Assembly (NCBI GenBank): GCA_905178155.1
Contig: CAJINV010000002.1
Span: forward strand, 7,861,650 to 7,925,649
DNA: 64,000 nt
Source: Amoebophrya sp. A120
Taxonomy: Eukaryota; Protista; Dinoflagellata
Direction of reading: 5' to 3'
Part shown: positions 9,240 to 59,700 of the stretch, one piece after another
How positions within the stretch are numbered: the stretch's first letter is position 1
How the letters are laid out: every line of letters begins with the position of its first letter
The notes under the pieces: generated by a model
The model's database searches: none
What the model was told of the DNA's origin: nothing
What the model saw: the letters and a program-made list of their open reading frames with translations, nothing else
Program-made: the position numbers and the translations under genes

Positions 9240-10960
<1,721 letters not shown>

Positions 10961-24851: not shown

Positions 24852-24918
24852 GGCAATGGTGAAAACCGCAATGGCAATGGAAGAGGAAAACCGCAATGGC
24901 AATGGTGAAAACCGCAAT
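24852..24918. repeat. Short minisatellite, 3 units of about 21 bp
   Basis: ggcaatggtgaaaaccgcaat twice, flanking a 25-bp variant. Confidence 0.8.
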
Positions 24919-28479: not shown

Positions 28480-31400
28480 CTATGCAGCAAAAATTTCCTT
28501 CACCTTGGTGGCCAGGCCTTCGCAGGTGCCCTTTGCGTCTCCCAAGAGCATTTCCGTGTTGTCCTTGAAGAACACGGGGTTCTCCAAGTCCGCATAGCCG
28601 CCGCCCATGGTGCGCTTCATGAACACCGTCTTTTTCGACTTCCACACCTCGATAACCGGCATGCCCCAGATGCTGCAGCCCTCGATCTCCTGCGCGGCGG
28701 AATTTGTGATGTCGTATCAAATGCAAAAATGTCTGGGTCTGGAACAAAGCAACTTGTCATGCTAAATCTCAATCATGTAAAAATCTGTGTTGCATGATTA
28801 CCAAAAGCTGTTCACTTTTGACCTAATCGCGAGGCAGTTTCTCATGCAGGATAGGCATGATAGAACGCTCACAGAATCTGTCATGCTATGTCCTACATAC
28901 CAGACCTCATGGGTCATGAAAAACCTGCATGACAAGTCTGGCATTCTTCCAGACCCAAACATATTTGCATTTGATATGTCGTTGGCGCCGACAACGAGGG
29001 TAACGTCCACGTCGGTGATGTCCGGGTTGACTTCGTCCATCTCCAGCACGTGGTCGTAGCTCACGCCCGCCTCCGCGAGCAGGACGTTCATCTGCCCCGG
29101 CATGCGGCCGGCCACCGGGTGGATGCCGAATTCCACGTGCACGCCATTGTCGATCAACGCGTTTGCCAAGTCCGCGCACGCGTTCTGTGCCCGGCTGACC
29201 GCCATCCCGTAGCCTGGAACGATCAGAACTTTCTGCGCGGTTGCCAGAGCGTTCGCCGTCGCTTCAATGTTGGTTTCCACGTGCTCCTTTGGCGTGTCGT
29301 CGCCCGCGGCCGCGGGCGCGGCGACGTTCATGCCACCGAAGAGGACGTTCATGATGTCGCGGTTCATCGCGTCGCACATAATCTTCGTCAAAATACCACC
29401 GGAGAAACCAATCAGGGACCCAACCACGGTGAGAATCGGGGAATTCAGCAGAAATCCCTCGGCGACCAGCGCCCACCCGGAATAACTGTGTGTGGGCGAG
29501 GAAGAGATATAAATTTGTGGGATTTTTTCGAAAGGTATTTTGCTTGGATACACGCATGAAGAACGTTTAGATTTCTCAGTATCGCAAGCCAAGGAAAATC
29601 TGCACAAAATGAAAACAAAAAAGATGCAACTCATTGTCAGTTCTTTTAAGTACGAGTTCAGAACGGTGATGCACACTGGCATATCCGCTCCGCCGACGCT
29701 ACCGACCAAGTGGTATCCCATTACGTTCGACAAAACCGCAGTCAGCCACAGGTCCATCACTCCTCCGCCCGAGCTCAAGAAGTGCGCGCCGATCAGCCCC
29801 TGCAGCCCGAGCCCGCCCAGGTTCAACAGATTCTTGTTGGGCAGGTTCAGGGGTTTGGAATCCAGTCTGCCGTCCAGCTTCGCGAAGGCGACGATGGACC
29901 CGGTGAGCGTGACGCCCCCGATGAAATCCCCGAGCAGGGCACTGGTGTTGTGCATGGTCGCGCCCGCGACAGGATGGGCCGCGAAGGACCCAATGGACGC
30001 AAACATTGCCGCCGCACCGACCAAACTGTGGAACGCAGCCACGGTCTGCGGGAGCTGGATCGGGGAGACCATATTGGCCACGTGGTACCCACCGGCGCCC
30101 CCGGCACCGAGGAGGGCGAGGGCCGGGACCGTGTACCCCGGCTCGACGCCTGATAGGTTGGTTATCGTTATGGATCTTCTTCAATTCACGACATCACTAT
30201 ACTGCATGCAATCATTGACATTACGTCGACATCAAGTTCGGCAAAAAAAAAATGTGAAAACGATGAAATAAGTGTAGTGAGTACTCATCAGCGTGGTTGT
30301 GACCGCTCCGGCGATTCCGCACATGCCCAGCTTGCAGCCCATTTATCCAGTGGAAAAACGTCCCCACCCCATAGTCAACATGGGGACTCGGCTAGACAAA
30401 TCCACAAGCTTTGGCTCTTTTGCATGACAAATTTGGACTCGTAGTGTAGTGCTATTTGAGCTAGCCCAGCAGCATCACAGACATAGTGTATCAAGCTGAT
30501 TGGAGCATGACACATTTCAAAACACGACTGAAGCATGCTTCTCATGGGGCTCCGCATGAGAAGCTTTTTCTGCATGCAGATTTGCATGACAACTCTGGGG
30601 TGGGGACGTTTTTACACAGGATACCATGTCCGCAGTGGTCATCTTCGACAACCCGCCAATGGCGCCGATGCACATGAGCCCGCACACCGTGTTCGTCGGC
30701 TCGATCAGGTCCGCTCCGCCTACCAGCGGCGCGGCCACGACCATCCCGCCCGGTATTGCGAGCAAATTCGAGTGGTCCACGTCGCCGGGGCGCTTGAACA
30801 GATCCAGCATCTTCTTCGTGACCAGAAACCCACCGACAATGTTGACCGCGGAGATGCTCGTCGCGGTTGCGGCGAGCAGGTCCACCCCAACCCCGCCCTT
30901 CCCCAGCAGCATCATGCCGCCCAGCGCGGTGGCACCGGAGATCGCGTTGGTGACGGACATCAACGGGGTGTGTAACGCGTGCGCGACGCCCATGACGACC
31001 TGGTACCCCGCGGCGCCCGCGAGCGTGAAGGAGTTCAACAGACTGGGCGGAACGCCGGTCCCGATCGCCATCACAGTGGCGCCACCGGCCGCAATCATCT
31101 GGCTCGTTTGCATCATCTCTTTTTTCGGGTCAACTTTCTCGACTTCCTTCGCCTCTACCGTCTTCGGCTTGGAGACCGGCGTCGGCTGTGGGGGCGGCGG
31201 CATCTCCAGCTCCTTACCTGCAGATATGGAATTTTGGTTTTGCATAGCTCACTTTTTTTTTTCCATTACAGATTTGCAGCTCCATAAACTACTGAAAACT
31301 GTTTCTCATGTGGGCCTAGCACCTGACACGTAAGAGGATGCAACCTCGCAGCACATTTGGTTAAAACTACCGTCTCTGCAGGTGACCATGCTTCGCACGA

Positions 31401-32895
31401 TGATATCTCCGTCGTCTCCGGCCTTCAGCGCCGCGTCTACCGCTGGCACGAAGCCCTCGGCCTTCTCCTTGCCGTGCACGTGCGAGATAAAATTGTACAT
31501 GTTCTGTGCGTACATCGAACTGGCGATGTGCCCCATACGGGCTGGGAGATCGTCGTAGCCAATGATGGTAACACCGTTGTCCGTGACGACAGTGGTGCCC
31601 GGTTTGGTCATAGTACAGTTCCCCCCCCCGGCGGCCGCCAAATCAACGATTACCGACCCCGGCTTCATGGCTTGCACCATGTTGTCTGGATTTTCGTTTG
31701 TTTGGGAGCAATAGGTCGTTGATGTGTCAAACTGAAGCTTCATCGTTTAGCCTGATGCTGATCATGTTTCATCTGCATTTGTAAAATTTTCAACACGTTC
31801 TGTCTTTAGTGCTAGGACAGAGCGGGTGTTGTACAGGTATTCCAAATACCTTCGATCAACTTTGGACTGGGCCGTCCGGGAATCGCGGCCGTTGTGATCA
31901 CAATGTCGCATTCCTTGCAGTGCTTCGCAAAGGTTTCCTTCTGCGCCTTCAAAAACTCCGGACTGGACTCCTTCGCATATCCGCCCGCGCCCGCGCCATC
32001 TTCCTTAAAGTCCACGGTGACCCACTTTGCGCCCATACTCTGCACCTGGTCGCTGACGTCCCGCACGTCCCACGCCCGCACCTGGGAACCTAAAGCCTTC
32101 GAGGTTCCCATGGCCGCGAGCCCGGCGACGCCGACACCCAGCACGAAGGTGTTACTCGGCGGGTACTTCCCCGCGGCGGTCACCTCGGGACTGTGGAACT
32201 TTTCAAACGCGTACGCCCCCTCGATCACCGCCCGGTGCCCGGCAACCTTGGCCTGCGAGGAGAGGACATCCAGCTTCTGTGCGATGGTGATCCGCGGCGC
32301 CGCCGTGGTGTCCACGAGGGTGCAGCCGGCCTTCGCGGCCGCGGCAACTTTCGCTTTACCGGCAGGCAGCATGCGGCCAACCTAGGAGCATTTGAGGTGC
32401 GAGGTACGACACTTTAATATTTCATGCGAAGATTCTTACAACAAGCATGAACAAGAATTGCAGATACAACAGCAGCCGCGTCGCGGTCGCCTTCTGGAAA
32501 TTATAGATAAGTACCCAGTTGACGAGCATTTTGTCCTTGAACTTCGTCAGTTCCTTGTCCTCCGGTGGGTGCAGGCCAAAAATCAACTTGGAGGAGGCAA
32601 TCATCTTGTCCCGCGCTAGGACCTCGCACCCCGCGTCCTTAAACGCTTGGTCAGAAAAACCCGATTTCGCCCCCGCGTTGGTTTCCACCGTGACCTTGTA
32701 TCCGTCCTTGATGAATTTCTGCGCCACGGCGGGTACCATGGTCACGCGGCGTTCCTTCCCGGCTTCCTTCAGCACACCTATGTTGAGGTTGCGTCGCTGC
32801 TGCCTCTGGTTGTTGCAAACCCTGGAGGTGGAGGAAGACGTGCCGCCCCGGGCAGCAGCAAAGCTGCCGCTCGACTTCGCCGCGAAAACGCGCAT
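28480..32895 (-). CDS. NNT: Proton-translocating NAD(P) transhydrogenase, fused alpha-beta, with N-terminal presequence; 5 GT-AG introns (32382-32514, 31686-31849, 31218-31370, 30150-30284, 29486-29653) plus 2 introners
   Basis: Conserved motifs [71 protein letters not shown]|[17 protein letters not shown]. Confidence 0.96.
28715..28976. mobile_element. Introner/MITE family A (262 bp), TSD TGTCG, in the NADP(H)-binding domain of NNT
   Basis: tatcaaatgcaaaaatgtctgggtctggaa ... ttccagacccaaacatatttgcatttgata. Removal restores [11 protein letters not shown]. Confidence 0.95.
30344..30623. mobile_element. Introner/MITE family C (280 bp), TSD CCATT/CCATG, in NNT
   Basis: tatccagtggaaaaacgtccccacccca ... 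tggggtggggacgtttttacacaggata. Removal restores [22 protein letters not shown]. Confidence 0.9.
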
Positions 32896-33430
32896 CTTGA
32901 GGGGACGCGGCTGGGAAACCTCTTACATGAAATTTTGTGTTTTCGTCTCTCGGTAAAAGTAAATTGCCTATTGGTCAGCAAAAAGAACAACGGTCATTTT
33001 TCTGCCCGTGAAAAGAAGAAACGTCGGTCATTTATCCTTCTCATCGTCTGCAGGCATCAAGAGTAAAAGCCGATAGCGCGCCCGTTCGGAACTAGATTGT
33101 GGCGTTGAACAACTTGGGTCCAAAAAAAAAAATTTGCAGTTCTGGCACCAGAGTGGCAGACAAGAGAGCTACAACTTCTCGATAACAAAGCCACGACAGA
33201 AGAAACCAGTTTCCGGGGTCCTCTTCTATCTGTTCCATTCGACCAAGGGATTCGTGGACCTTGGCTGCCCGGTCCGCGAACACCAGAAGAAGCAACAGCA
33301 AGAAGCCGATGCCGGTGCTGCTATAACATCAACAGCATTGCTCTTGTTTACTGCTGTACTATGCAGATTCCATACTTACGCGTGAGACAAAGCGATCTCG
33401 GCGAAGGGAGAAGAAGATAAATTCTGTCTC

Positions 33431-35004
33431 CTACATGTTTTCAATCATGAACGACATGTGTGGATCGTGGATGTCTTTCGTGATACTGCGCCTCCGCAGC
33501 GTTTCCCCCACGCCGCCCTCCAGATCGTCTTCGCCACTGGACCAGACACCGGAACTGAGCGAAGAGGAACTGCTTTCCTTGATCGCGCTCTGTAGCACAT
33601 TTTTCCTTCGCTCGTATTCCTGAGCCGAAATTGCGTGCTTTTCCGCGATGGAGATCCTAGACAGGTCGTCCGGGGAGGAACTACTCAGCCCGCGGTCCGC
33701 TCCCGACAGGAGGCTAGTTGCAGTAGACTCTGCGGGAACATTAGGCGCACCTGCGGCCGTAGTGCCCCCGCCCCCGAGTTTGGTTGTTGTGGTCCCGGAG
33801 ACCAGGGCGCGCGCCGCGTCGTGCAAGGGGAAGGCTTTGAAGAACCAAACCAGCGCGGCAACCAGCGGGAACCAGTCGGCGTGCGACCCCAGGTTGTCCC
33901 TCCAAGTGTCCTTTTTGCGCATGCGACTGTCCTTGTACAGGTACTGCATGGATTCGTAGAGGGAATTGGTCAGGGGGTACTTCATGTGGTACTGGTACAG
34001 CACCGTGCCCCAACAGACGGCCGCCCAGAGGCGGCGGATGACGGTGCGCTGGAAGGACGTGGTTTTGAAGAGCAGCACATTCTTGCTGTTGCTGCTTCCC
34101 GCGCACCGCTTCACGAAGGCGACCAGGACGCGGGACATGATGTACATGTTCATCAGGTCGTGGAACCCAGATTTGTATCAAATGTAAAAATGTCTGGGTC
34201 TGGAAACTTGTGATGCTAAAATGTGCATGATGAAGACACTTCCGAATGCAGTCCGGCATGACAACTTCCCAAAACTCTTTCTCATAGGCAATCCGCATGA
34301 GAAACTGCGTTTTTGCATGACGATGGAGGCTGCGACTTTTGTTGGTTATGCAATACAGATTTTCTAGGTATGGAAAGCTAGCATTACAAGTTCCAACCTT
34401 CCAGACCCAGACATTTTTACAATCCATAATTTGCTGCCCCAAACGATACCGCCCGACAAAAAGCCCGACACGAACCAGTGCCACGGGCGCTCGAAATTCC
34501 CCGGCGTTATCCTGTCAGTCGGTTTGGATTTCGTTCTGCTCTGAACAAGTCACAAAGAGTGAGGAATTTGCACCGGTAAAAAGTAAGTATCTAGAAGCTG
34601 TTTATTGAGTTCATCACATTTTGATTTTTAGGTTTAACAGGTACAACAAATACGCCGCCAAATACTACAAACACCCTCCGTCCTTACCTTCTCAACAGAA
34701 AGAGCCAGGTCTTCGCGAGCGCGACGTTTAGGCCGAGCGAGCTTCCGTGGTCGAAGGCTGCGTTGGTGATGGTGTTAATGAAAAACGCCGGCGTGAGTAC
34801 CTTGTTTTCACTGGCGAACAGCCACGTCTTCACTAACGCGTCCACCACGCGTATCCTGGTTCCGTAGAGGATCCCGTGGAAAAACCCGTTGCGGATAGTT
34901 CGCGTGTTGTCGTGGGGAAAGTAGTACTGGGCATACCGCGACGGGGTCACCTGCCGCAACAGCGAGGCGCTCGGGTTGTCGTCGTCCATCATAGGGACGT
35001 TCAT
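33431..35004 (-). CDS. PXMP4: Peroxisomal membrane protein 4 (PXMP4/PMP24); GT-AG intron 34512-34687 plus introner
   Basis: RNGFFHGILYGTRIR..LVKTWLF, GGIVWGSK|SGFHDLMNMYIMSRVL, WAAVCWGTVL and SLYESMQYLYKDS match the PXMP4 pattern. Confidence 0.8.
34176..34428. mobile_element. Introner/MITE family A (253 bp), TSD ATTTG
   Basis: tatcaaatgtaaaaatgtctgggtctggaa ... ttccagacccagacatttttacaatccata; ATTTG at 34171-75 and 34429-33. Confidence 0.93.
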
Positions 35005-36219
35005 TGTGGGCAGCTGCACGAACAACAAGTTGTTAGTACTTACACCGCCTCTGGTATTTTGCTCGCGAGGAACAAAAATCTGTCCCCGCCGAAGAGCACT
35101 TTACGCGGTCACCCGCAAATTCCGAATTTTATCCACGACACATAGCGAATTGAAAAATTTGTTCTTCCATCATGTTCCGAGCACCAAAAGGCAGCTCCCG
35201 CTTGTCCTCTGTGCAGCAAAAAATTGCGACATCCGTCGCGGTGGATCGCGGTGGCCCCGCCTCGATCCGTCTACCTAACGCGACTGCCCGATAAGGCAGT
35301 AAAACTCATTGCAGAGAGGCAAAATGCATGTCATGGCTCCAGATCATCAAGTGCGACTCCTTGATCTGCTGAGAGGGTTGATCATCCTGATGAACATTCT
35401 GGCACAAGAGGACCACAAGGACCCGGGCGCTGTCTGGCGTCTCTTCGAAAATGCAAAAAACTTTGGCAATACTTATCCGATCCAACTCCGTGTTGAAGTG
35501 AACAACGGCACGAATTGCCTGTCAATGTCCAGAAAAATCCAGCAGCACTCTTTAAGTCCTCGGTGCGAATTTGCGATGTGCTTTTACATTTTTCTTCCTG
35601 TCACGGCGCTACTGGAAGCAGTGATCTTTGTGCATTTGCACAGAATATGCAGCCGGAATTTGTCTTCCTTCGAGGAAATCATTCCACCACTAATATTGCG
35701 TCGCAAATTTTCACTTCTGTGCTCGATCCATTCGTAGCCCCCCTATGACATAGACACTTTTTCTCGTGCAGCAGCAAACTTTGACAACCACAAGCGTACT
35801 GTTGAAAGTCCATAAGGTCTGAAGTAAAAAAGATGCGGATTAAGCCACTTTCAAAAAAAAACCAATTTGTCATACGTCTACACACGAGTAGAATACTTAC
35901 TGCGAACAATTACGCTACAATTTGCATACTCACTTTTTTGTGGCTTGGCAGAGCAGCAGCAGTAGCACAAAAAATTTTACATGTGTAAAAAGGGGTGAGT
36001 GGACGTGTTTACTTTTCGTCTTTGTAGACTTTCCACCCAGAACCAACTAAATCATACACGTATCTGTAGGTAAAAAACTAAAAAAATCTAAACGAAGAAC
36101 CCTAGGACCAGTAACTAAGTATACTTCTCTCCGGCTGACAGCATTTTAATTTGTAGTGCCTTATGTTCTTAATAAGTACTTACTACTATCTTGTCAACAC
36201 GCATGAAGAGTGGACAAAT

Positions 36220-37594: not shown

Positions 37595-37862
37595 TATGAA
37601 ATGCAAACATGTAGTCTCGGTCTGGAACTTGTGATGCGCGGAAGGGAATACCTAGCGCGCACACTGCATATGCGATGCAAAGCATGACAAGTTTTCCCGC
37701 GGTTCTGAGTTGTGTACTTACTCCGGATGAGAAACTGCGTTTTTGCATGACAGGCCAGGGGGGCTCTTTGCGGCCACGCAATACAGAGTTCGGAGCCATG
37801 CCAGACTAGCGCGACAAGTGAGTCTCGCAATGTCCCAGACCCAGACATAATTGCATTTGATA
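37595..37862. mobile_element. Degenerate family A element (268 bp), TSD eroded, not in a recognised CDS
   Basis: tatgaaatgcaaacatgtagtctcggtctggaa ... cccagacccagacataattgcatttgata. Interior shares atgagaaactgcgtttttgcatgac with 34176-34428. Confidence 0.8.
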
Positions 37863-39010
37863 CTACCTATGATGACTACAGCTGTTGGAGACACAACTAA
37901 ATACTACGCGCGACTCTCCTTCGAGACTCACACATCCGTCGTTTTCGGCCTCTGAGGGCGCCACCCTTCGCGACGTTCCTCCTGCGTGTTCCTGCTCAGC
38001 AGTTGCAAAAGTGTAGGTCGTCAAGAGATGGCGCAGGTACTCTGCCCTACGCTTGTTACGGCATCTGCATCCGGTGCAGGCGTAGGTGCAGGTGAAGGCG
38101 GCTCACCTTCCACGTGTTCCAGAACCGCTTGAAAGGTAGAGGAGGGCAGCACCAGTTGCAATTCATCTTTCAGGCTTTTCAGCATCTCCGCAACAAGATC
38201 GGGGAAACGCCGGGAGGGAAGGAGTATTGCGCTCTATCCAACAAAACAACTGTGGCTCGCCAGAAAATTTCAAAATTTACAAATCAATGTGCGAAGAACT
38301 CAAAAAAATGCAAGGCAAGGCACCGCAATCCGCCAAAATGAGCGATCGTCGTGCTGGTCGTACCGTCGCAGCTTGTTCAGAATTAATCTCACATATCATC
38401 AGGGCAAGTACTTTAAGTACTTGCCCTTATGAGCACAGTTATGAGCTTGTTCAGAACAGTTAGTTTTCTAATAGCAAACTAACTGTTCTCGCAAATTCCG
38501 AAAACTTGGTGGATACACTTGCATGTAAGGCCGCTGGCATGTGCTGCTGCTCACTTAAAAGAAATCTTGCATCAGCGGCCTTTTTTGTTTTCTTGGATAA
38601 TAAGCCCGCGCGGTCAACTTCAGCCATTTTCAAAAGGGTTCCAAATTATGCATTGCAAATGCAATAGTATCTGGCTCTGGAGAAGTGGAGCTCCTTAGGT
38701 GTGGTAGGCGCGCGCCTGTTTTGCGTTGCTGGAAAATCTGTAGTGCGTGACCCGAAAATAAATGGGTGGGTGAATGCGTGGCGCCGCGTGACATACCTCA
38801 TCAGTAATAGATCCGATCGGCCTGCTTGCTTCGACGCCATTTGGCCAGCACGAGCGCCCACCAAGCATGCAGATTTGAGAGAGAGAGAGAGAGAGTTAGT
38901 GATGCAAAACCATGATTATCCGGCGCCGGCCCCGGCCCGGGGCCCGGCCTCCTGCAGGGGTGATTCAGTTGCTTCGGTTACCCATACCTTCGAAAGCGCA
39001 CACTCTCTAG

Positions 39011-42000
39011 CTATTCGTCATGCAGTATTACCGCTTGCAATAATGAGAATTCCGTACTAGAAAGCGTTCGAAACGCTTGCCGGCGTGCTTGGGTACGAAT
39101 AAATGTATATGTGTCAGCAGTCCCACATCCAGAATGTCCAGACGACAAGAAAGATACTACATTTGCAATGCATATCACTTCCTCTGCAATTTTGTTCTTG
39201 CTCGCTTCGCCCTGAAATTGTTCTGCCTCCGCCGCCCTGAAATACAGGGCATAAAGTTTCAGGACAACGCGGTAGGTGCTCGGAGTCGGCTCCAAATTTT
39301 CTGAACGGATTTCCTCCAGCATGTCCTCGGCGTCTTTGATCCGCCTTGCTACGTCGCTAAAAGATGAAGCGTCGCTTGCTTTTTCGAGATATCGGCTGAT
39401 CAACGCGTAGTACGTGAGAGCATCGTGATCCACGTTGTATTTTAGCATCGAATCCAGAACCCACTTAACCCCCTCTTCTGTTTTCGAAGCGGGCATCCGG
39501 GGCGTTCTTCTGCTTCGGGTCCTGTCTTGCTCTTGATTCTGATAGTTGGTGCCGCAGTACGCAAACAAGAACTTGTTATACGTTTCTACCTTGGGGGGTC
39601 CTACGTGTGTTGTACCGCCAGGCTGCTGCTCCTGCGCCATCTGCTCATGCATCATTTCGAGAACCCTCCGTGCGCTATCGGTATCGTCCGCGTTTAGGTA
39701 ACGCACAACCAGTTCTTCCGCAATCCCAAATGTGAACTTGTCTGGCGTCCCCACTGCCCGCAACATCTGTCCCAGGATCCGTCTTTGCTCTTCTTTCGGG
39801 ACACTTTTGGGCGGGTTGCGATGCTCGCGTCTAGTTCTAGGCCTGCTATAGAGGCGTAGGAGGTTGTAGAGATGCTCCCTACTGTCTCTGGTGGTGGCGT
39901 CCATTGCTTCCAGATGCGCAACGAGCAGACCGAGCCGCGCGTTATCCCTACAAAACCACGGACCAGTCCCTGCCTGCTGCGTAAGTAGGAGGTTGTCGTA
40001 AAAGGCCAGGTCGACCGGTGCGCCGCTACTCATCGAACTTCCCTTATTGTTCCCCTTGCCGCCATCGCTGCTGCTTCTGGGCCACCAACCAGACCGCAAC
40101 TGCACTGTCCCCAGCTTTGCTGCCACCTCAATATCGCATGCAAATGTGTCTGGGTCGGGAAAACTCTGATACGCATTTTTTTTAAGATCGCGGCCACGGA
40201 AAGATCTGTCATGCTTGGGCAGTAAAAGTTGCTCTTCTTGTTGTTACCAAGAGAAGTTAGTTATTTGTCACGCAGTGGCCTAGGCATTTAAGAAACAGTC
40301 TCAAGAAGAACAGCTGTGGGCGTGGTTCCAGGGCTTTGCGTGGCAGATCATCTTCTGGGCCACGGAGACACTGCATCACAGGCTTCAGCAATCTTCCAGA
40401 CCCAGACACATTTGGATTTGATACTCCATTTCGCGGAGCAGCTCCCTGGCCTGCTCTGTCCTGCCCGTCCTAGCATACTGTTGCAAAATAATACGGAAGG
40501 TAGCAACGCTAGGCATCACATTTGCGTCCTGTTCCATCAAGTCCAGCACGCGGCTAATGCCGTCGCGGATAATGTCGCCACGCTTTTCGTTGTCGCCTTC
40601 CGCGTCAGCCGCATGACCGTGCGCATCCAACAGCGCGTGGTAGGTGGCGACATTCGGCGCAATGCCTTCCACTATCATCATTTGAAACTCATCATATGCG
40701 CCCCGAACGTTGCCGCTCGTAGCGCAGGCACCAACTAGCGCGTTGTAGGTGGCGACATTCGGCGCCACGTCTGCGCTCTTCATCATTTGAAATACACAGC
40801 GCGCACCCAGTTCGTCGCGATTGCGGGCGTAGGCCTGTATAAGAACGTTGTAGGTGGCTACATCCGGCGCCACGCCTTCCGCTGCCATCATTTTAAACGC
40901 ACGGCATGCACCCGGAACGTCGCCCTTCTTAGCGTAGGCATCCACTAGCGCGTTGTAGGTGAAGACATTCGGCGCCACGCCTTCCGCTCTCATCTTTGGA
41001 AGCACATCGCATGCGCCCGGAACGTTGCCACTCTTGGCGCAGGCACCAACTAGCGTGTTGTAGGTGACCACATCCGGCGCCACGTCTGCGCTTCTCATCA
41101 TTTGAAATACACGGCGCGCACCCAGTTCGTCGCGATTGCGGGCGTAGGCCTGTATCAGAACGTTGTAGGTGCCGACATTCGGCGCTACGCCTTCGGCTAT
41201 CATCCTTTTAAACACATCCCATGCGCCCGGAACGTCGCCACTCTTAGCGAAGGCATCCACTAGCGCGGTGTAGGTTAAGGCGTTCGGCGTCAGACCTGCG
41301 GCTCTCATCATTGGAAGCACACTGTATGCGCCCGGGGCGTCGCCATTCCGAGCGTGAGCTCCTATGAGCATGGTGTAGGTGGCGACATCCGGCTCCAGGC
41401 CTGCGTCTTTCATCTTTTGAAACACACGGAATGCGCCCAGAACGTCGCCCCTCTTGGCGTAGGCATCCAGCACCGCACCGTAGGTGGCGACATCCGGCGG
41501 CGCGTTGTCCTTCGTCATCCTTGTCAGGATAGCCTCGGCGCCCTCCAGATCGCTAATATTCAGATATCCTCTCCGCAGCGTGTTGTAGGTGACGACATTC
41601 CGCGGCACGTGGTCGCGCTTCATCCTCTGCAGGACATCTTCTGCGCCCTCGAGATTGCCAACCTTCACATAGCCGCTCAACAACGTGTTGTAGGTGACGA
41701 CATTCCGCGGCACGTGGTCGCGCTTCATCCTCCGCAGGACATCTTCTGCGCCCTCGAGATTGCCAGCCTTCCCATAGCCGCTCAACAACGTGCTGTAGGT
41801 GACGACATTCGGCGCAACTTTGTTCTCGTCGGCCTTCATCCTCGTCAGGATAGCTTCTGCGCCCTCCAGATCGCCAGCCTCCACATAGCCGCTCAGCAGC
41901 GTGTTATAGGTGACGACATTCGGCGCCTCTTTGATCTCTACCATCATCCTCGACAGGATAGCTTCTGCGCGCTTTAGATTGGACCTGCCAGCCTTCACAT

Positions 42001-42977
42001 AGACGCTCAGCAACGTGTTGCACGTGACGACATCCGGCACCACGTTGTCCCCCTTCATACGCGACAGGATAGCCTCTGCGCCCGCCTCATCCCCAGCCTT
42101 CACATAGCCGCGCAGCAACGTGGTGTAGGTGACGACATCCCGCGCCACGTTGTCCTCCTTCATCCTCGACAGGACAGCTTCTGCGCCCTCCAGATTGCTA
42201 GCCTTCTCCTCTACATGGCCGCCCGGCAAAATGTTGCAGGAGGAGGTGTTCTATACAATGCAAAGATGATGTCTGGGTCTGGAAGACTCCAGGCGTTCTG
42301 GTCATGTCGCTCTTCCACGCACCAGCCACAAGAGGCCAGCACCGTTGGGAAGAGCATGTCGGGCTGCCTGTAGTTGTTCCGGAAGGTCTTTCTCTTTGTC
42401 TTTCTCTTTTCATCAGTCCCTGAATTGCATGAGAAACATCATCCCCCAGCTTGACTAAAAGTGGGCAGCGCGACGGACTCTTCTGCTGGGAGCCATGCAA
42501 GACAGATTTAGTCTGTATCTGTGACCTACCGAGGGTGGAACAAGTCTGCATCCCTCCAGACCCGGACATTGTAGCTGCGGTTGATATATCTTCATCCACG
42601 TAGCGCTGAATTTCCTTGTTGAAGAACATGGACACAGATTTATGATATCCACCTTTCCCGCCCCCCACGCGCGACGGGGATCCATGACGAGACGCCGGCC
42701 CTTTGCCACTGCCTTTGCCGCCGCTGCCTCGTCCTCTTCCCTTCATCGAACCAGTTCCCTTATTCCCCTTGCCGCCATGGCTGCTGGTTCCGAGCTGCAA
42801 ACCAGATTGAAACTTCACAGCCACCACTGTTTGGAAAAAGTAGGTAGTGCTCGGAGTAGTCTGAAAACGTTCCCCACTCAGCAACGCTCCCAAGAAATCT
42901 CCTTGCATGTTGAAAAACAGGCCACCGGCGTAGGTCGTTGCAAGGACGCGACGAACAGAGGGGAGCATTTTCATTTT
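39011..42977 (-). CDS. Pentatricopeptide repeat (P-class PPR) protein, about 14 canonical plus several degenerate motifs; interrupted by 2 introners
   Basis: 35-aa repeats PDVVTYNTLL..Y.K.G....A..I...M in ORF 40385-42229. Flanking ORFs join in frame after removing elements 42252-42586 and 40132-40423 (+5 nt each). Start and 3' end uncertain. Confidence 0.88.
40132..40423. mobile_element. Introner/MITE family A (292 bp), TSD CTCAA/CTCCA
   Basis: tatcgcatgcaaatgtgtctgggtcgggaa ... ttccagacccagacacatttggatttgata. Confidence 0.85.
42252..42586. mobile_element. Diverged family A introner (about 335 bp), TSD degenerate
   Basis: tatacaatgcaaagatgatgtctgggtctggaa ... tccagacccggacattgtagctgcggttgata. 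Removing 340 nt gives YVDEDTSSCNILPGGHV in frame with the PPR ORF. Confidence 0.72.
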
Positions 42978-44281
42978 TATCGAGACCGTCTGTAACTGAA
43001 GCACTCTAATGAAGTAGAAAGATAAAGATAAACCAATATTTTAAATTACTCGGATAAAGTCAGAAGCAACCTTTCTGTTCAAAGCGAAAATCAAGAGGAG
43101 AAGAGAATTTTTAAGAGACAAATGAAAGAGTAAGAGACCGCGTCTTGCAGCCAAATAATAAATATCCTAGGCCTTGACGATTCTAGCAGAAGACAGTAGG
43201 GGTTGTGGTTTTATTTGGAAAATCAGGGTATATCAGCGCTCACTATGTATAGTTAAATGTAGATGTTTTCAGTACCGGAGAATCAAACCCAGAAACAATG
43301 AAAGCTCCTGCGCCGAAAGCTTGTTTCTTGGTTTTTTCCAAAATGTCAAATTGTATTTCCGCTGCCCATTAGCATCAACAGGAGGGAAGTGATGTCATGA
43401 TCTCAAATTTTTCAGCTGCGCCAGCACGCGTACTTAGTCAACAATCTTCGCGATTCGTGACATCTGGCCGCACAACCGACAGTTCTCTACTACTCCCCTC
43501 GAAAATGAGTGATCCATTTCTTTTGTAGTGATCCATTTCCAATTCACTAATTAGTCTCACCACGGTACCGAGTGAAATTTTCCTTGCCTTCAGGTGGTAG
43601 GTTGCAGTAGAGAAGAGCAGTTTGTTTCTTCAGAAGACTTTTCGACTTTGATTTTGCTTTCGAACATTTTTAGCTTTGAACTCGCATTTGATCCGATGTC
43701 GTCAAAGATCCGATCGGATTTGTTTCGGCAAACATTTCACCGACTGGATGAAGCAAACTTACTGGAGAAAGCTGATTTTTGGCCCAGTAATCAACTTCGA
43801 ACTCTGGATCCAAAAAGCTTCAAACAAAAGCAAAACATTATCTATACTAAGAGGAGATCAGAATGTACTTAAGTACCTCTCCATCGATCCAGATTGCATA
43901 CTTACACCTCCCTCTCGATCTTCAAATAACGCCGAAAATCTTCTTCGGAGACGGCGCGACTACACCGAAATGCATGATCTCTACTCTACCTCGGTGTACA
44001 TTCACGGACTGAACGCCAAGGAACTTCATGCTGAGTCTTCACCTTTCAGGCTGTCAAGTACTAAGGTACTCGCTGAACAAAGTCGGCAACTGCGGTTGCG
44101 ACTACGTACTGCATTTTTGTGCTGTTTAGAGCCAAATTCTTGTTTTAGTGTTCCTCGTCGTTGATCGCTACAAGAACGCCAACAAAGCAAACCCGGAACC
44201 GAGTTTCATCGGCACTAGCTCTGGTGTTCAACTGGAGATCAGACGAAAAAATCCCGTTTACTGAATCAAGTACGACGAGCT

Positions 44282-46228: not shown

Positions 46229-48835
46229 TTAGTCATCTACAAAAACCCCCGCGTTCGCACCGGTTAAGTCCGCGATGTTTACTACTCTCTCCTCAATCTG
46301 TTGTTGCGTCGTATGAAGAACCGCTTCCTGCGTAGTACCTTGGGCAGCTGCTTGCCCAGATACGGTCAGGTTCAAATCCTCCCCCTCGTCCCCGACAAAC
46401 ATCTCAATTTCTTCGTCTAAATTCTGGTACTTTTGCAACACGTGCTGCAGCAGCTTTCGTTCCGCCTCGGCGCCCTTGTAGATGAACGCGTTGTCGGGTT
46501 GTTCCACGACCGCGTCCTCGTACAGGGTATCCACGATTTTGTACGCGTAGCCCTGCTCCACCAGGTACTGCTGTCTCTTCGACGCGTAGTACATCTCTTG
46601 CGTGTCCTTCGACACCAGCGAATAGAAGTACGCGTTCACGTCGCTCGCGCTCTTGGTCGCGCTGGTGATCTTCTTCGGCCGCAGAATCCGGCCCAGCCGC
46701 TGCGCCTCCTGCCGTCGCGAGGCGAAGTGCGCGTTGATCTGGATCACCACATTCGCGGACGGCAGGTCGATCGCGTTGTCGCCGACTTTGGACAGAAACA
46801 ACGTCCCCACCGCCGGATCCTCCTTGAACTTCCGCAGAATCACTTCCCGCTCCCGGTTCGGCACCTCCCCGTAGATGTAGTACCGCTTCATCGCCTCGGC
46901 GAAGGTTTTCAAAATCTCCGTGTTGTCGGAGAAAACGAGGATTTTGTCGCCCCGCTTCTCGTGGAACCGAATGAGAAACTCCGCGAGGCACAGTTTGATC
47001 GGGTTGCACGTGAACAACAGCCGCGCGGTCGCGTGCTTGCCGCGTTCGTTGATCTTTTTCAGGTACTCCTCGTAAAACCTCTCCGACATCTGGCACCACA
47101 CCTCCACACACTGCACCTTCGCGAGGTAGCCGAGGTCTTGCAGCTGGTGCCAGTTCGCCTCGTACAGCTTCGGCCCGATCAGCCACTGCAAATCCGTGAT
47201 CAGGTCGTCCTCCCTGACTAATGTCGCGGTGAGCCCGAGCTTGCACCGGGACCGCACCGTCAACGCGACTTGGCGAAACGTCTTCGCCGGCATCACCTGC
47301 ACCTCGTCGCAAATCAACAGCCCCCACTCCACCGCGCGGATCTGGTTCATGATGTAGCGCGTGTCTTGGCCGCGGCGGCCGGAAAACCCGATCATGGAGT
47401 AGGTGGAGATCACGACGCAGGCCTCGAACACGTCCTTGATCGCGGTCTTGTGGTCCGCCGTGAACTGGAAAATGTCGTCCTTCTTGATCGTCGAGAACTG
47501 CAGGAACTGCTGTTGCCACTGGGACACCGCCATCGCGGTCGAGGTCAGAACTAACGTTCGCTTCTTGATCGTCGAGCACGCGGTGATCCCCACGCAGGTC
47601 TTCCCCGCGCCGCAGGGGAGGACAATGATCCCGGACCGCGCGCGCGTGCTCGTGGTGAACATTTTGGACAACGCGATCTCCTGGTACTCGCGGATGTGGG
47701 TCGAGGGCTTCATGGAGATGTCCAAATCCGGCGCTTTCTTGTCCAGCTTGTACTCGTACTCCTCGAGGAGGGGAAAGTTGTTCACGAAAGCCAGCTTTTT
47801 CACCTCTTCCGCGCGATTGCCATCGACGCGAATGTAGTACAGCTCCGTGGGAAAGTCGTCGTCAAAGTCGGACGTGGACAACTCCTCCTCATACTCTTCC
47901 ATCAGCAGGTCACTCAGCGCGTTTGAAGAGGACGAGGATCTGTTCATTTGCCACCTCCTGCGCTTGTTCGAGGGGTGGTCATTTGCCGAGTTGTTTGTTC
48001 TAACTGGCAGCGACTCGGTGACGAGGTTCTGTTCCTGCAGAATTTCCTGCAACTGCTCCAACGCATCGTAATCGGTTGATTCCAAGTAGTGATGCACCGA
48101 CTCGCCGACGTCCTGGAAAGCGCGAGAAAAAACTGAAGCGCCACCCGCTGATCCAGCTCCTGTAGTTGCAGCTGCACCTGGGCCTAGTTGTGCGGGATGA
48201 AGCAGTGGCTGAAACTGGGATGATGAACCAGATGCAGTTGCTGTGCCTGCAGTACTTCTACCTCCCTGCTGGTCAACAAAATTATTTGTTCCTAGTGCAG
48301 CTCCTGTGTTATTTCTTGCGAAGTTTGCTGCTGAGTTCAACGCCAACTGGCTTTTGTTCCACAGGTACTTCACCTTTCCCAAATTTTGCGCGTACTGCCG
48401 AATCCACTTGAGCAAAACGTCGTCCACCTTGTTCTTCGAGAGTTTGTGCAGACTCTCTTCGATGTCCGATATCGTTAGGCCCGAAGAAACGGCGGAATAC
48501 AGGGAAAATGTGGTGATTTGGTACTCCTGCAGCCCCTCCGGGCGGGCCACCGGCTCGGCGACCGTGATGCAGAAGTCCTCGGCGTGGGCGAAGAACTTGT
48601 GGAAGGTTTCGAGCAGGATGAGTCCGTCCTTGAAAACGGTGAGCGGGCGGGATTCGTAGCCCTTTACCAACTGCATCGGCCCGTCGTCGAAGGTGCAATG
48701 GATGTTCGGGCGCCCGGGCATGGCCTCCAGCGTCGCCTCCAGCCCCGATTCGCCCGTGTCGTTGACATTGTAGTCCTGGTCGCTGAAGGCGTCTTCGGCG
48801 ACCAGGAGTTGGCGGCCCCGCGAGGAAGTGGCCAT
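46229..48835 (-). CDS. XPB: TFIIH DNA helicase/translocase XPB (ERCC3/Ssl2)
   Basis: RSGIIVLPCGAGKT, LLICDEVQ, LGLTATLVREDD, LIGPKLYEANW, SRRQEAQRLGRILRPK, FYSLVSKDTQEMYYASKRQQYL. Confidence 0.97.
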   Translation of the reverse strand: MATSSRGRQLLVAEDAFSDQDYNVNDTGESGLEATLEAMPGRPNIHCTFDDGPMQLVKGYESRPLTVFKDGLILLETFHKFFAHAEDFCITVAEPVARPEGLQEYQITTFSLYSAVSSGLTISDIEESLHKLSKNKVDDVLLKWIRQYAQNLGKVKYLWNKSQLALNSAANFARNNTGAALGTNNFVDQQGGRSTAGTATASGSSSQFQPLLHPAQLGPGAAATTGAGSAGGASVFSRAFQDVGESVHHYLESTDYDALEQLQEILQEQNLVTESLPVRTNNSANDHPSNKRRRWQMNRSSSSSNALSDLLMEEYEEELSTSDFDDDFPTELYYIRVDGNRAEEVKKLAFVNNFPLLEEYEYKLDKKAPDLDISMKPSTHIREYQEIALSKMFTTSTRARSGIIVLPCGAGKTCVGITACSTIKKRTLVLTSTAMAVSQWQQQFLQFSTIKKDDIFQFTADHKTAIKDVFEACVVISTYSMIGFSGRRGQDTRYIMNQIRAVEWGLLICDEVQVMPAKTFRQVALTVRSRCKLGLTATLVREDDLITDLQWLIGPKLYEANWHQLQDLGYLAKVQCVEVWCQMSERFYEEYLKKINERGKHATARLLFTCNPIKLCLAEFLIRFHEKRGDKILVFSDNTEILKTFAEAMKRYYIYGEVPNREREVILRKFKEDPAVGTLFLSKVGDNAIDLPSANVVIQINAHFASRRQEAQRLGRILRPKKITSATKSASDVNAYFYSLVSKDTQEMYYASKRQQYLVEQGYAYKIVDTLYEDAVVEQPDNAFIYKGAEAERKLLQHVLQKYQNLDEEIEMFVGDEGEDLNLTVSGQAAAQGTTQEAVLHTTQQQIEERVVNIADLTGANAGVFVDD

Positions 48836-49578
48836 GCTATAAGAGGTGCCTCGCTGGCTCGATAGTGTTATACTAGAAGGAGATTTTGCAGGATGTACAA
48901 GTAGAGTACCTCCTCGAGGGTTCCTCCACCATCATCGTGGTGATGTCCAGGGGAGGACGGGGGGCTTTGCTTCTGTAGTGATCTTGACTCGCACTTACAA
49001 GAAGCGTGAACAGGGGTAATGGGGGAGTAAGAGTCGACTGAGAAAGTAAGAGGTGTTCTTCGGTGAAGTGAAGGAAAGTAAGGAAAAAAATCTCTGTCTA
49101 AACAAGCCTGCAATGAATCGTAGGGCATGACGGTCGCAACTAGCTTCCAATAAGACAAGATTGTTCTACTTCTAGGACAAGCAAATGAAGGCGTGTTGCT
49201 CATCGTAATAAGCTGCATCTGAGATCTTCAGTCACATCGTTGTTCAACAACGAGCTTCTGAGCTGAGTCGTGATCTGTGATTCGATAGCGCCACCGTCAG
49301 ACGTCCAGATCATTTTCTGACCTCTGTGCATCGTTGTTGGTCGTGAACCAGAATCTTCAGAAAGCGTCATCAGCAACAGCATTATAACAAGTACGGTGAG
49401 TTTCTCTTCTAATGGCGACCGACTCTTTTTGCAGGCACGAAAAGTACACCTCTTGCACCGCGAAAACATGGCGAGAGCTTGCTATCGGTCTTTGGACCAC
49501 AATTGGCACGAAGCTTGGTGACTCCTCGTCGTGCTTGCCGTCAAATACTTTTTTTAGTGGCGCCTCTGCGCGCGCGGC

Positions 49579-54600: not shown

Positions 54601-55559
54601 TTCTGCGGCTCGCCCCACACCTCCGAGGCGCAGCAATCTTCCCCCTCGTCCGCACACTTGTCTGTATCGTGCAAAAAAACGTGTCTCGGGCGATCCGCAA
54701 AGGGCTTGAAAATCATCTGCGGCGGGCTCGTGGTCTCGGGCTTGCTTCCGTAGGGCGTAGCCGCAGCCCATGCGGACGCATTGTACGGCGGTGGTGTGGT
54801 GGTTGTGAACAAAGATGTGTAAAATCCAGACCGGTAGTGCACGGGCTGCGGGAGGAGGTCCAGGGACGCGCCGGACGGCGAGGCAGCAGTTGATGTAGAC
54901 CCGCTATTTACGACCCCCGTGGAGGTGCTTGCTGGAACTACTAAATTGGCTATTGCCGTCGCACTAATAGAAGTACCCCCGGTTGCTTTATTGTCTCTTG
55001 CGCTGTTGTCCCGTCCAACGCATTGGATAACCGGTCGGCGCCAGGAATCGACGGCGGGCAGGTGCGCTTCCGGCACGTGGGCAGCTTGGGGGTGACATAT
55101 TTCTTGCTCACGGTCCTCGTACTCGGAAATGCAGTAGCCGGAATGCCCGTAGCCTGCGAACTCGGCGGTGCAGTACCCCCTGCGTGGCGCCGCGTGCTCC
55201 GCACTGGGACTTGTAGTGGCAGTCTCGGTCGTTGAAGCCGGCGGATCTGCGGTGCTGGCTTCTGATGATGCGGTAATCGTCGCTGTGGATGGACGAGCAA
55301 TGTACTCCGTGCAGTTTCCTTGGCAGTCGGCGTGGGTCCGGCAGCGTCGCGCGGCGACAGGTACTAGAAATGTTCCCAAGAATCTTCCACATCCGCCACC
55401 GCCAGCTAGAACGAGGAAGGAGAGAAACAACGATGTGTCCCGGAGGCAGTACAAATGACGAACGAGGAGACCAACTACAGCACTGGCTGTGCAATCATGG
55501 TCCCGCGGTGGAATCTCCCCAGCAGTAGAATCTCGCCGTCTCTGACACGCAACCCGCAT
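51696..55559 (-). CDS. Type I membrane/surface protein with three 8-Cys repeat modules (two ORFs joined by an intron of about 150-190 nt)
   Basis: HD...C..DCCA.E.W...Q.C..G....GC(F/Y)GCY once in ORF 54396-55559 and twice in ORF 51696-54323. N-terminal hydrophobic stretch; TM FVIGVVVIGSLLLAFVLLLV. Confidence 0.7.
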
Positions 55560-56770
55560 GGTGATCCGCAGCGAGACTAGTACAGCCTGGTACTTGACAG
55601 CTCTTTCCAGTTGACCATGGTGGGCCGGTACCTTTCAGCATCAGGGTAAGTACATGATGATCTCCCAGATGTCAGTCAAGTAGTCGCTGGGCATCTCCAT
55701 CGCTCTACAACTCAGAAGCAACAAATTTATCTTCATACCATACTCCTCACTCGGGCGGCAGCGAAACGGCGCTCGTCGTTTCGGAACACGAGTGTTTTAC
55801 ATCGACCTACACGGCCCTCATTCAGCAGAAGCAGAACAGCTGCTTCATAGCTGCATCGCATAGAAAATTTAAATTCCCGAAAGGGCACTGGGAATAAAAA
55901 GCGTGTAGTCCTGTGTCTCATTCCATCGCACCACGTCTCGGTGACACAAATTTGGAACAGATCAGTGCCGAGGGGGTGAGTAGTACGGGGTAGAACCAAA
56001 GGTACAAAAATCGGAATCAGATTACAAATACAAGGTTCTTGTGGGTATCAACTACGGAAGAAAAAAAGCGCACGGGTTACGTTAGAGGTTCAGGAAGAGC
56101 AGAGCTCTTGTCTTTGAAATTCCCAAAATGCCACATGCCTGTACGTAGCGTCTTGATAAATTCCCAGTCTCATCAAAAATCCCGGTAAGAAATTACGACT
56201 TTTGGTATCTTGCCGCCGCGTAAAGAAAAATGATATGATGAAGTACGATATCTTTTTGCTTTTGGTATTTATATTTCACCTCGAGGTACAGAAAGTTATG
56301 CGCGTGGGTATCCCGGTAGAAATGAAGATCTTCTGAAACATGCGACAAACTAACAGGCTCTAAGAGCAGTCAGACCGTTGACGATTGATGTTTAGCAGTT
56401 GGACCATCGTCTGACTGTCAAGGGGGCCTTTACGGCTACTCAGCCTACCGATTCCAGGCAAGTTCCCCGACAGAAAAACGGATGGCTTTCTGCTGAATAA
56501 AAGAACTGCTGAAGATAGTGATTGCACAAACTGCCTTTATCAACTACCTTTGACTTTGTTTTTGACGTAGATCATTCATCAAAAATCGGAAGTGAAAAAA
56601 ATCTGAAAAATAGTTCACAGTCGCTTTACAAGAGTTTCAAATAAAGCATTTTTCTTTGGCCACCGCTTTCTGACACCAGAACGCGTTACTTGTCCGCATG
56701 ACGTTCAACACGCTACTGGTGCTTATGTTCAGGAAAATGATCCAGCAGCCAAATAAAGTCGCCCAGCACT

Positions 56771-59700
56771 TCAGGGGCTCGTCATTTCTGTGCCCTTTTC
56801 CGCGTCCTTCCCAGCTGCGGGGCTGACCTTTTTGTTGTCGCCTCCGTAGAACTTGGCCATCGATTCCTTGCAGAAGTAGCACATGGCCGCGAAGGCCACG
56901 CCCGCACAGAAGCACAGGCCGAACAACACTCCGATCAGAATCCACAGCCACGTCAAGGAATCTCCCTCGTCGTCCTTCTTCTCTTCGGCCGCAGTGCCCC
57001 CCGTGGCCGCTCCACTGCTTTGCGGCGATCCCTGCGTTCCGGCGTTGGCCACGGCGCTCGGAACGCTGTCCCAGCCGGAGCCCTGCACGGAGGGGTTTTG
57101 CCAGTTCGCGCCGCCCTCCGCCGCCGCACCGCCCGCGACGTTGGACAACGCCGGCTTGGAAGCCAACCCGTTCACGGCGAGCACCAGGCTTGCGGAGGAC
57201 AGCGTGCTGTCCGCCTGCGATTCCTGCCCGAAGTAGTCGACCAAAAGATTCCCGAACCCCGGGTCCGCGACCTGCTCCATCAGTTCGTCGGGGGACTGCG
57301 GCGGGGCGGAGTCACTGGCACTACTGCCCATGCTACTCCCCGTCGGAGGAGTTACCGTCGCGTCCGCCTGGATCAGCTTCTGCGTACCGTTGGAACCGGC
57401 CTGCAACAGACGGAGCAACAGGCCCTGCTCGGAAGCCGCGGAGGAGGAAACCCAAGACGAAGACGCCGCTTTGTTGTTACGCTGTTCCATTTCGAACACC
57501 TGCAGCGCTTCCTCCAGATCCGGGTCCGCAAGCAGCATTCGGGCGGTCGACACGGCGGCCGTCCCGGCCGCGTCGGTGTAGTTCAGCTTGCTCGCATCGA
57601 TGGTCACGGCGCTGCTGCTGAGACCGAGCGCGCGGGACACTGTCCGCGACAGCGCACTTACCAGTGCAGACTTGACCGTCGAGGACAGACTCGCCACGTC
57701 CGACTGGATGAGCAGCTCCAGCTTCATGTCGAACGACCCCGCGGGATCCGTGTCGAACTGCGCGAAGTGGCACCACAGGCGGTCGGCGCGGAAGACCGAG
57801 TACCGCGAGCTGTGCGTGTAGTTCATCTTCCCCACGGAAAACAGGCCGGGCTGCATGAAGCTGCAGAACCTCCGGGACAATTCACGCGCGTGCACCCCAG
57901 GCATCGCCACTCGCCGGTTCGTGTCGTCCAAGCTCGTCGGGTTGAAGGCGCCGACGAACTTCGACGCGCTCGTGTTGTTCGCGATCGCGGCGGTTGCCTG
58001 GTGCATCTTCGAGTTCCCCTTGTATTTCATGTCCAGCGTCGCGGCCGGAAACCAGGGCATGCCGGTGGGCACCGGCTTGCCGGAACCAAACACGGCGGAC
58101 TTCGCGGACCGCGACCGGATGTTCGCCGGCAGCTCCGCGCACGTGCTGGCCGACACCTCGTTGCAGAAGCCCACCGTACTGCCGTACTGCACGTTGGACG
58201 ACGCGACCGCGTCGCGGTTGCACCGCGTCTTGCTGTCGCACAGGTTGTACTCGAGCCGGTTTTCGCTCCCGGGAAGTTTCAACGCGGACCCGCGACTCGC
58301 GATCTTGTCGAACGCATTGTACTTGGTGGCCGTGAACCCGTTGTGGTTGCGGATGGCGCCCCAGGACTTGACCAGGTTGAACTCGTCGGATCCCATGTTG
58401 TTCACGATCGTGTGGTATGCAGTGCAAAAGTATCGCACTCGTAGTAGTTGCAGTCATGCATGACAAATCTGGTTCCTTAGCTCATTCAGCAATACAAATC
58501 CCATTTCTCCTTCTGGACAAATTTGCAATGCTATTTCTACTAGTACGATACTTTTGCAATGCATATGTGATTGTCCCCCTTGACGGTGAACGGGTCGTTT
58601 CCGAACAGAACGTTGCGCACCACGGTGGTGAACCGCCCCGGGTTCGTGGCGGTGCTGCTGGTGTCCAGCCGGATGGACTTGATCTTGGTCGGGCCGAAGA
58701 TGAAGTTCCCGGAAATCAGGGTCCAGTACTGGCCGTCGATCTGGATGTGGAAGCTGGCCGTGTCCTTCCAGCTGCCCATGTACCCCGTCCCCACGATCAG
58801 GTTGTTCTTGCACTGGTACCCCCGCGCCCAGTGCTTGAAGCCCCCGCCGTGCCCGTTGTACAAAAGCGTGTTCTATCAAATGTAAAAATGTCTGGGTCTG
58901 GAAGATTGGCAGGTTTGTCATGCACATTTTGCATGACTCCTGATGTCTGTGATGCATGCCCTAGCATCACAGATTTTGTGAGGGCTTCCTGATGCCTATA
59001 CCGTATGACAAATGCTCTTTCCGTGTAGCAAAACTTGGACTCTCTTTGCTGCTCATGCAATACAGATTTTTTTAGAATCCAAAATCAGCATAACAAGTTG
59101 GATTCTTCCAGACCCAGACATTTTTACATTTCATATGTTCTGCTGGAGGGTGTCCTTGAACCCGTCCCCCTGTATCCCACAGAAAAAAGCTGGCAGGTGC
59201 AGGTCATATTTGTAATGCAAAAATAAATAGACAAAAAAATTTGTATTGCATATCCTAAATAGCATGCTATGAGGCCGCCCATGGCAGATTTTTCTGTGTA
59301 TTTATTTTTGCATTACAAATATGCCCCGCCAGCTTTTTTCTGTGGGATACCCTGGAAGCAGTACTCGTAGCCGTCCGTGTTCTTCCGGTGCGCGTACCCG
59401 TTGAAGGCCACGTAGTTCCGGCTCACGAACGCGTTGCTCGCCTTGTAGCGGACCGCCCGCTTGGTGGCGCCGGCGACGATCGCGTTGTCCGCGATGAAGA
59501 GCCGCTTCCCGCTGCCCCGCCCGTTCTGCTTGGTAGTGAAGATCTGCACCGTGGCCCAGCTGCTGTGCGGGGGGGAGTACAGAAAGTGGTTGTACAGGAG
59601 GTAAATGTTCAGGTTGAACTTGTTCCCCACCAGGGGCTGGCTTTTGGAGCAGCAGTTGGTCCCGAAAAAGTGCAGCCCCTCGATCCAGATGTAGGTGTTG

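Follow-up and report, generated by a model that had tools for sequence, protein, structure and literature searches.

The window analyzed here is a stretch of 64,000 nucleotides (nt) (contig CAJINV010000002.1, positions 7,861,650–7,925,649), in which protein-coding genes harbor short elements with terminal inverted repeats (TIRs), here called introners. Four of these elements, referred to by their first positions in the window as 27, 28715, 34176 and 58874, form one family, family A, with a length of about 260 nt and TIRs of about 30 nt; each starts with TAT, ends with ATA and is flanked by two identical 5-nt repeats. A profile search of the window returned four further members, giving eight copies in total. 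The family A copies, and the two genes in which their removal could be followed, are as follows:

27..313: family A introner, orientation 1 (as 28715); 5-nt duplication 22-26 and 314-318; host probably on the minus strand
28715..28976: family A introner in the beta domain of NNT, orientation 1; 5-nt duplication 28710-28714 and 28977-28981; transcripts skip 267 nt
34176..34428: family A introner, orientation 2, in a PXMP4-like gene; duplication 34171-34175 and 34429-34433; transcripts skip 258 nt
58874..59135: family A introner, orientation 2; duplication 58869-58873 and 59136-59140; in an 883-aa minus-strand frame
11975..12254: family A introner, oriented as 58874; duplication of 5 nt, exact; host strand uncertain (plus by the codon model)
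40132..40423: diverged family A copy in a PPR gene, oriented as 28715; one mismatch in its duplication
37595..37862: diverged family A copy, oriented as 58874; without intact duplication
42252..42586: diverged family A copy, oriented as 58874; without intact duplication
27900..33100 (approximate bounds), minus strand: NNT host gene, interrupted by six GT-AG introns and two introners; splicing leaves a frame of 1036 aa
33178..35476, minus strand: PXMP4-like host gene; one introner besides the GT-AG intron 34512-34687; frame of 379 aa

We scored orientation by stripping 36 nt of TIR off each end and aligning the remaining interiors both ways; shuffled interiors gave a baseline of −23 to −33 with a standard deviation of 9–10. 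The interiors of 27 and 28715 align in the forward direction (score 123; reversed −3), whereas that of 58874 aligns with 27 and 28715 when reversed (191 and 148; forward 12.5 and 14). The interior of 34176, by its sequence a more distant family member, aligns with 58874 in the forward direction (65.5; reversed 0) and with 27 and 28715 when reversed (40.5 and 61.5; forward −7.5 and 17.5). The initial annotation had proposed that one introner family sits in both orientations, with the reverse-complemented interior of 58874–59135 matching 28715–28976 and 27–313 and with 34176 facing the same way as 58874, and the TIR-stripped alignments bear this out in each respect. Family A interiors repeat a TIR-like motif about 53 nt in from one end (e.g., at window positions 28769 and 12195) and are partly self-complementary.

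All four host genes had also been assigned to the minus strand. For 28715 and 34176 this is established by transcript contigs with CT..AC joints, while for 58874 and 27 it is a call of the codon model, which was correct in 95 of 96 cases at 240 nt in cross-validation. At 58874 the model favors minus with a margin of 22, and the plus strand, too, has an open shadow frame of 878 aa; the 883-aa minus-strand frame (56771–60030) that holds this element as well as 58416 and 59173, and thus members of three families, has no Pfam match. At 27 the junction itself is uncalled (margin 2.0), and the sole stop-free, positive-scoring frame in the flank is on the minus strand. The identity of NNT is confirmed by the Pfam PNTB domain, which matches on the minus strand in the exons on either side of 28715 (profile positions 217–385 and 388–454), and by the 1036-aa frame that is obtained by splicing as in the transcripts. 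The gene around 34176 likewise yields a spliced minus-strand transcript, but its name is unconfirmed (no Pfam match, Atlas blank); we call it PXMP4-like by resemblance.

Removal from RNA was evaluated in contigs of four runs (X1–X4) from one sample of one study, the RNA nature of which is presumed. These cover 28715 and 34176, i.e., one family A copy per orientation, and one introner of another family:

30344..30623: other-family introner in NNT; duplication mismatch at the first sense position; 285 nt skipped

At 28715 the contigs join position 28708 to 28976 with a loss of 267 nt (262 + 5), and at 34176 they join 34170 to 34429 with a loss of 258 nt (253 + 5), in four of four runs in both cases. 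The loss corresponds exactly to the element plus one copy of the duplication. Because seven GT-AG introns, read on the minus strand, are missing from the same contigs, these represent spliced transcripts, and both orientations are removed precisely from mRNA, as observed for one copy each. Splicing of a single orientation, which the initial annotation considered incompatible with its proposal, is accordingly not what the transcripts display.

A hairpin next to a short direct repeat is a classic setting for template-switch artefacts; both features are present here, and all RNA data are contigs derived from cDNA. We nonetheless regard it as very improbable that the joined form arises from template switching by reverse transcriptase, or that the element is removed from DNA before expression. 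Retention breaks the reading frames of both NNT, at the cost of PNTB profile positions 388–454 in the case of 28715, and the PXMP4-like gene, and 69 of the 76 listed copies in coding context carry stops in all three frames; removal in vivo is therefore required. The elements are present in DNA: contigs of the DNA-like run X5 pass through each duplication into the TIR among the joints listed, to which the assessment applies (142 further joints lie beyond these), and DNA contigs extend, at background depth, across all four duplications and on into the TIRs. Moreover, the contigs that carry the joined form lack GT-AG introns as well.

Beyond the window, an exact TIR search of metagenome contigs returned at least 144 loci from another assembly, none of which overlaps the window flanks. 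Including the window, 272 TAT...ATA candidates are listed, of which 195 have exact duplications, 32 one mismatch, 6 two mismatches and 39 more (3–5); the orientation count took duplications with at most one mismatch, excluding the last two groups. Among the matches listed outside the window, a host strand was called for 86 of 126 family A copies, and the two orientations occur in a ratio of 48:38 (p = 0.33); no call was obtained for the remaining 40, nor for 30 of 90 copies of other families. The tally of orientation against host strand that had been suggested thus comes out close to even. A Pfam-anchored subset of 13 copies that adjoin a domain gives 7:6 (150 of 182 flanking frames scanned), and codon model and Pfam agree on the strand in 12 of 12 called copies. 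For 49 of the 86 listed copies the nearest neighbor belongs to the opposite orientation class, and a DGAT-like locus (L061) contains both orientations. Two family A copies lie in the gene for the largest subunit of RNA polymerase II (L049:478–739 and 1501–2472), the second of which is 972 nt long, with an unrelated insert and an exact duplication; element lengths of 150–972 nt and unrelated interiors are evidently tolerated. In the six copies longer than 400 nt there is no frame above 150 aa, and no transposase was seen. The summed DNA contig depth at family bins is very high, a value that is not a copy number.

The flanking duplications are constant in length and random in sequence. The exact repeat is 5 nt long in 112 of 182 candidates and 3 nt in three, with none at 4 or 6–9 nt, and its composition does not differ from that of the flanks at any of the five positions (p 0.05–0.86). 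A GT/GC-AG pair is possible in any of six registers in 11 of 125 listed copies, which is about the chance level, and in none in the other 114; 28715, 34176 and 30344 offer no such pair in any register. One mismatch between the two repeats is found in 32 of 233 copies and two in a further 6. At 30344, 285 nt are skipped exactly in four of four runs despite the mismatch, and since the mRNA keeps the upstream copy of the duplication, the cut must lie at least 1 nt inside it. The idea that the direct repeats are themselves recognized, put forward in the initial annotation, is not supported by these observations. One-mismatch duplications (about 14% of copies) can reveal the register of the cut. 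In the 24 of 32 cases with a known strand, mismatches fall 9, 5, 2, 3 and 5 times on the five sense positions; their polarity (14 vs 8) is not significant, and 13 of the 24 are synonymous, which is compatible with a fixed and a variable register alike. How plausible the resulting protein is at seven mismatched sites did not single out a register either.

The mismatches also bear on an explanation that involves no splicing, in which RNA polymerase skips the hairpin and the nascent 3′ end re-anneals at the second copy of the duplication. Such skipping would be blind to orientation, would require only a hairpin and any direct repeat, and would be expected to leave the upstream copy in the RNA, which is the outcome at 30344; a somewhat larger share of the mismatches also falls on the first two sense positions (14 of 24). 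However, 8 of the 24 fall on positions 4–5, where priming should fail, and loose-end contigs of the RNA-like runs join TIR-bearing sequence to other loci, as pre-mRNA would, although DNA carry-over could have the same effect. Polymerase skipping on such a scale has no known eukaryotic precedent, and we consider this explanation improbable.

The orientation count and the random duplications establish that removal needs no polar signal in the interior and no exonic signal. The orientation count narrows the removal signals to the last ~30 nt at each end, as opposed to interior, exon or duplication sequence. To this extent the proposal that excision uses no directional donor, branch point and acceptor is upheld: interior polarity and exon sequence are not read. 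That such signals are absent from the TIR does not follow. A donor or branch point inside the TIR is compatible with free orientation, because the TIR makes the 5′ 30 nt of one strand identical to those of the other, and the 3′ 30 nt likewise. Free orientation is, furthermore, what one would expect of a TIR element by default, has been described for other introners, and does not on its own discriminate a retuned spliceosome from a new machine.

Both ends of the elements carry TAT, seven looser bases and AAA, as judged by position counts over 146 copies, and so do all four window elements. The terminal TAT is intact at both ends in 204 elements, and 9 deviants were picked by eye, whereas decay at the rate of the duplications, 3.5% per site, would predict 22–34. 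Since the termini are kept better than neutral decay predicts, this suggests that host selection has maintained the terminal TAT/ATA after insertion. A stem closing the ends folds in both spliced copies, and hence in both orientations, with z values of −8.9 and −5.8.

Together, the TIRs, the fixed-length duplication and the lack of coding capacity are features of a MITE (miniature inverted-repeat transposable element), i.e., a non-autonomous TIR DNA transposon, and this is likely to be the origin of the elements. Based on these observations, we lean towards a mechanism in which: (i) a MITE-like element would insert at random and in either direction, creating a 5-nt duplication; (ii) the inserted element would be transcribed and is then, as observed, removed from the RNA together with one copy of the duplication; (iii) the RNA machinery would read UAU-N7-AAA and its complement, which are likely held together by pairing; and (iv) the cut would be placed, as if by a ruler, at a fixed distance from the ends and within the duplications. 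The central point of this proposal, to which we give a slight preference, is that the machinery reads two mirror-image ends and cleaves within the duplications at a set distance. The catalyst may be the spliceosome, with a lariat as intermediate, or a separate nuclease-ligase that would release a circular or linear product.

Several observations weigh against this proposal. The orientation count comes from another assembly, for which identity of species with the window is not established (the best copies are 73–91% alike), and the RNA evidence consists of contigs of one sample whose RNA status is guessed. The folds do not demonstrate function, because any TIR element is expected to form a stem, and sense and antisense strands fold equally well (73 of 142). 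Pairing at stem positions 4, 5 and 7 is limited to 62%, 62% and 47% of 146 copies, and 34176, which is mismatched in this region, is spliced nonetheless; the symmetric terminal stem that the initial annotation held to be recognized thus need not be perfect. Over stem positions 1–24 of the 146 copies, G·U pairs (104) do not exceed A·C mismatches (108), giving no overall sign of selection for RNA pairing, and in positions 1–14 A·C is the more frequent (69 vs 44). The reverse holds for positions 15–24 (G·U 60, A·C 39), a window that was chosen post hoc and is open to transcription-linked mutation. Finally, there are two weak hints of polarity: among six called deviants, the first two TIR bases are changed in none at the sense 5′ end and in four at the 3′ end, and the G4 variant of family A is confined to the 3′ end in 24 copies and to the 5′ end in 8 (p = 0.007).

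Both hints, as well as the lack of an overall G·U excess, would be accommodated if directional spliceosomal signals resided inside the TIR and the stem were a mere legacy of the transposon. In detail, the intron would start one base before the element (N-U-A), an A in the terminal AUA would act as the branch point, and 3′ cleavage would follow at a fixed 4 nt further on; the spliceosome would have to be relaxed at +1 and at the AG. Eight canonical donors could be read from joints, and seven have A at +3, so that N-U-A matches both the +2 U and the +3 A; the inverted repeat of strain A25, which starts with TTA (PMC7789003), would give the same U+2 and A+3. Strain A120 is reported to retain U2, U4, U5 and U6 together with 83 of 89 spliceosomal proteins (PMC7789003), and Fritillaria provides a precedent for a retuned U2 spliceosome (PMC11282704). 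The initial annotation had named a branch-point-like motif on the sense strand in both orientations as evidence against its view, and 38 of 48 copies in one orientation and 20 of 38 in the other do carry a YTRAY-like match, its A lying three bases from the 3′ end, as against only 10 of 60 copies in other families. It is located only inside the TIR, however, where the terminal AUA is its sole invariant part, and a scan of the interiors for three branch-like patterns found no motif common to both orientations.

On the other hand, the G4 skew is absent from other families (9 vs 12) and from the 21 copies outside the ascertainment of the search pattern (8 vs 8), and the spliced element 34176 bears the G4 variant at its 5′ end; the difference in conservation between 5′ and 3′ TIRs is restricted to family A and is not robust. 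Nor is there a preference for G at position 5 of the duplication or for AG, and the 3′ dinucleotide is random in all registers save the excluded one, unlike in Fritillaria, the register being constrained only to at least 1 nt into the duplication. Overall, we consider TIR-borne spliceosomal signals possible but doubtful.

If mirror-image ends are read instead, as we slightly prefer, the machinery could be a second splicing system, independent of the spliceosome, that recognizes the two-fold symmetric stem of a transposon end and links exons, whatever their sequence, to the exact base. We put this stronger version forward tentatively and would not bet on it. If true, any DNA placed between the 30-nt ends and the 5-nt duplication would become a scarless, orientation-free intron, and the system would amount to a machine for transposon detoxification and a portable tool.

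The remaining features of the window include two further introners, both within the 883-aa frame of 58874:

58416..58565: TAT...ATA introner from another family; one mismatch in its duplication
59173..59349: TAT...ATA introner from another family; duplication exact

Intact duplications are lacking from the family A-like copies at 37595–37862, 38647–39174 and 42252–42586, the first two in a stretch nearly bare of transcript contigs; cover by contigs of X1–X4 is little or none at 37595, 38647 and 40132. The copies at 37595, 38647 and 42252 have possibly decayed where selection for removal has lapsed. Introners 11975 and 13750 are each adjoined by a copy of a 71-nt duplication (94%; 11856–11926 and 13663–13733), and the codon model, which calls plus at the former and minus at the latter, may point to a decayed or rearranged gene. 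A palindrome at 12989–13352 has arms of 173 nt that are 88% complementary, with inner repeats, and is not a TAT...ATA element. The region around 24366–24861 is repeated elsewhere, as judged by raised DNA contig depth and variant letters, and no TIR was found there. In NNT, the canonical intron 28017–28501 near the 3′ end occurs in spliced and retained forms in contigs of all four runs, and the canonical intron 29486–29653 (168 nt) is in frame, stop-free and concealed within a 460-aa open reading frame. Further genes encode a mitochondrial-type ribosomal protein L24 (14373–14873), PPR repeat proteins (39011–43040) and an XPB helicase (46229–48931), the best named relative of which is from Amoebophrya sp. 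A25 (66%). Repeats of 228 nt at 9250–10900 presumably represent a polyubiquitin-like gene. All of these lie on the minus strand, consistent with co-oriented gene blocks.

The XPB helicase, with its best named relative in A25, supports the genus, and the ends of the elements fit the motif published for Amoebophrya A120, which alone points to the strain; it is therefore highly likely that the elements are the introner elements of A120 published by Farhat et al. 2021 (PMC7789003). That study describes an inverted repeat of TAT, seven looser bases and AAA, border direct repeats of 3–5 nt with a 5-bp example in the legend of Fig. S19, an average length of nearly 240 nt, the absence of fixed splice dinucleotides, genes in co-oriented blocks, and a hairpin model drawn in Fig. 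4. It further reports tens of thousands of introns without GT-AG and no detected U1 snRNA (small nuclear RNA), and leaves the mode of removal an open question; the missing U1 is itself uncertain, because a review reports a U1-70K homologue in A25 (PMC12787238). The window elements share the anatomy, repetition and GT-AG-free removal of the A120 elements, and we see no difference in kind. The introns, their inverted and direct repeats and the hairpin model are thus already published, and what is new is that the signals for removal likely reside in the mirror-image ends only. The text and supplement text of Farhat et al. 2021, figures aside, contain no tally of element orientation against host strand that we could find (PMC7789003). 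The method of Gozashti 2022 allows insertions in opposite orientation, and Gozashti 2025 lists 58 A120 families, with no statement on orientation found in its text or in 12 of its 14 supplement files (PMC12130899). No orientation count for Amoebophrya introners was found in the literature searched, which comprised openly available texts rather than subscription papers, theses, figure images or bioRxiv supplements.

Among known systems, the nonconventional introns of Euglena depend on terminal inverted repeats (PMC12501133), a precedent for removal that relies on the ends, and share with the Amoebophrya elements a MITE-like origin, border direct repeats, variable junction dinucleotides and GT-AG introns alongside. 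They belong to an unrelated lineage and differ in having CAG at +4 to +6, CTG at −8 to −6 and a purine/pyrimidine rule at the borders, and their excision as full-length circles is reported (PMC12501133, PMC11282704). The Amoebophrya elements, with their TAT...ATA ends and random border bases, display neither the CAG/CTG pairing nor the Y|R borders. In Fritillaria borealis (Henriet 2019), introns are likewise MITE-derived, with TIRs, duplications and non-GT-AG borders, but there the borders AG-AC and AG-AT are preferred, an exonic motif is present, U1 is conserved and removal is by a U2-type spliceosome (via PMC11282704, PMC13326754). Polarella glacialis introners are TIR DNA transposons that form introns in either orientation (Roy et al., bioRxiv 10.1101/2020.10.14.339549), and those of Aureococcus anophagefferens (Huff et al. 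2016) also occur in both orientations (via PMC10228655 and bioRxiv 10.1101/2020.10.14.339549). As in Amoebophrya, these are TIR introners that insert either way round and are removed with one copy of the duplication. They differ in that G[TCA] and AG sites are carried or co-opted and the duplications are constrained (GHNN, AGGH and the like), whereas in Amoebophrya the duplication has a random sequence and GT/GC-AG sites are lacking in 114 of 125 copies.

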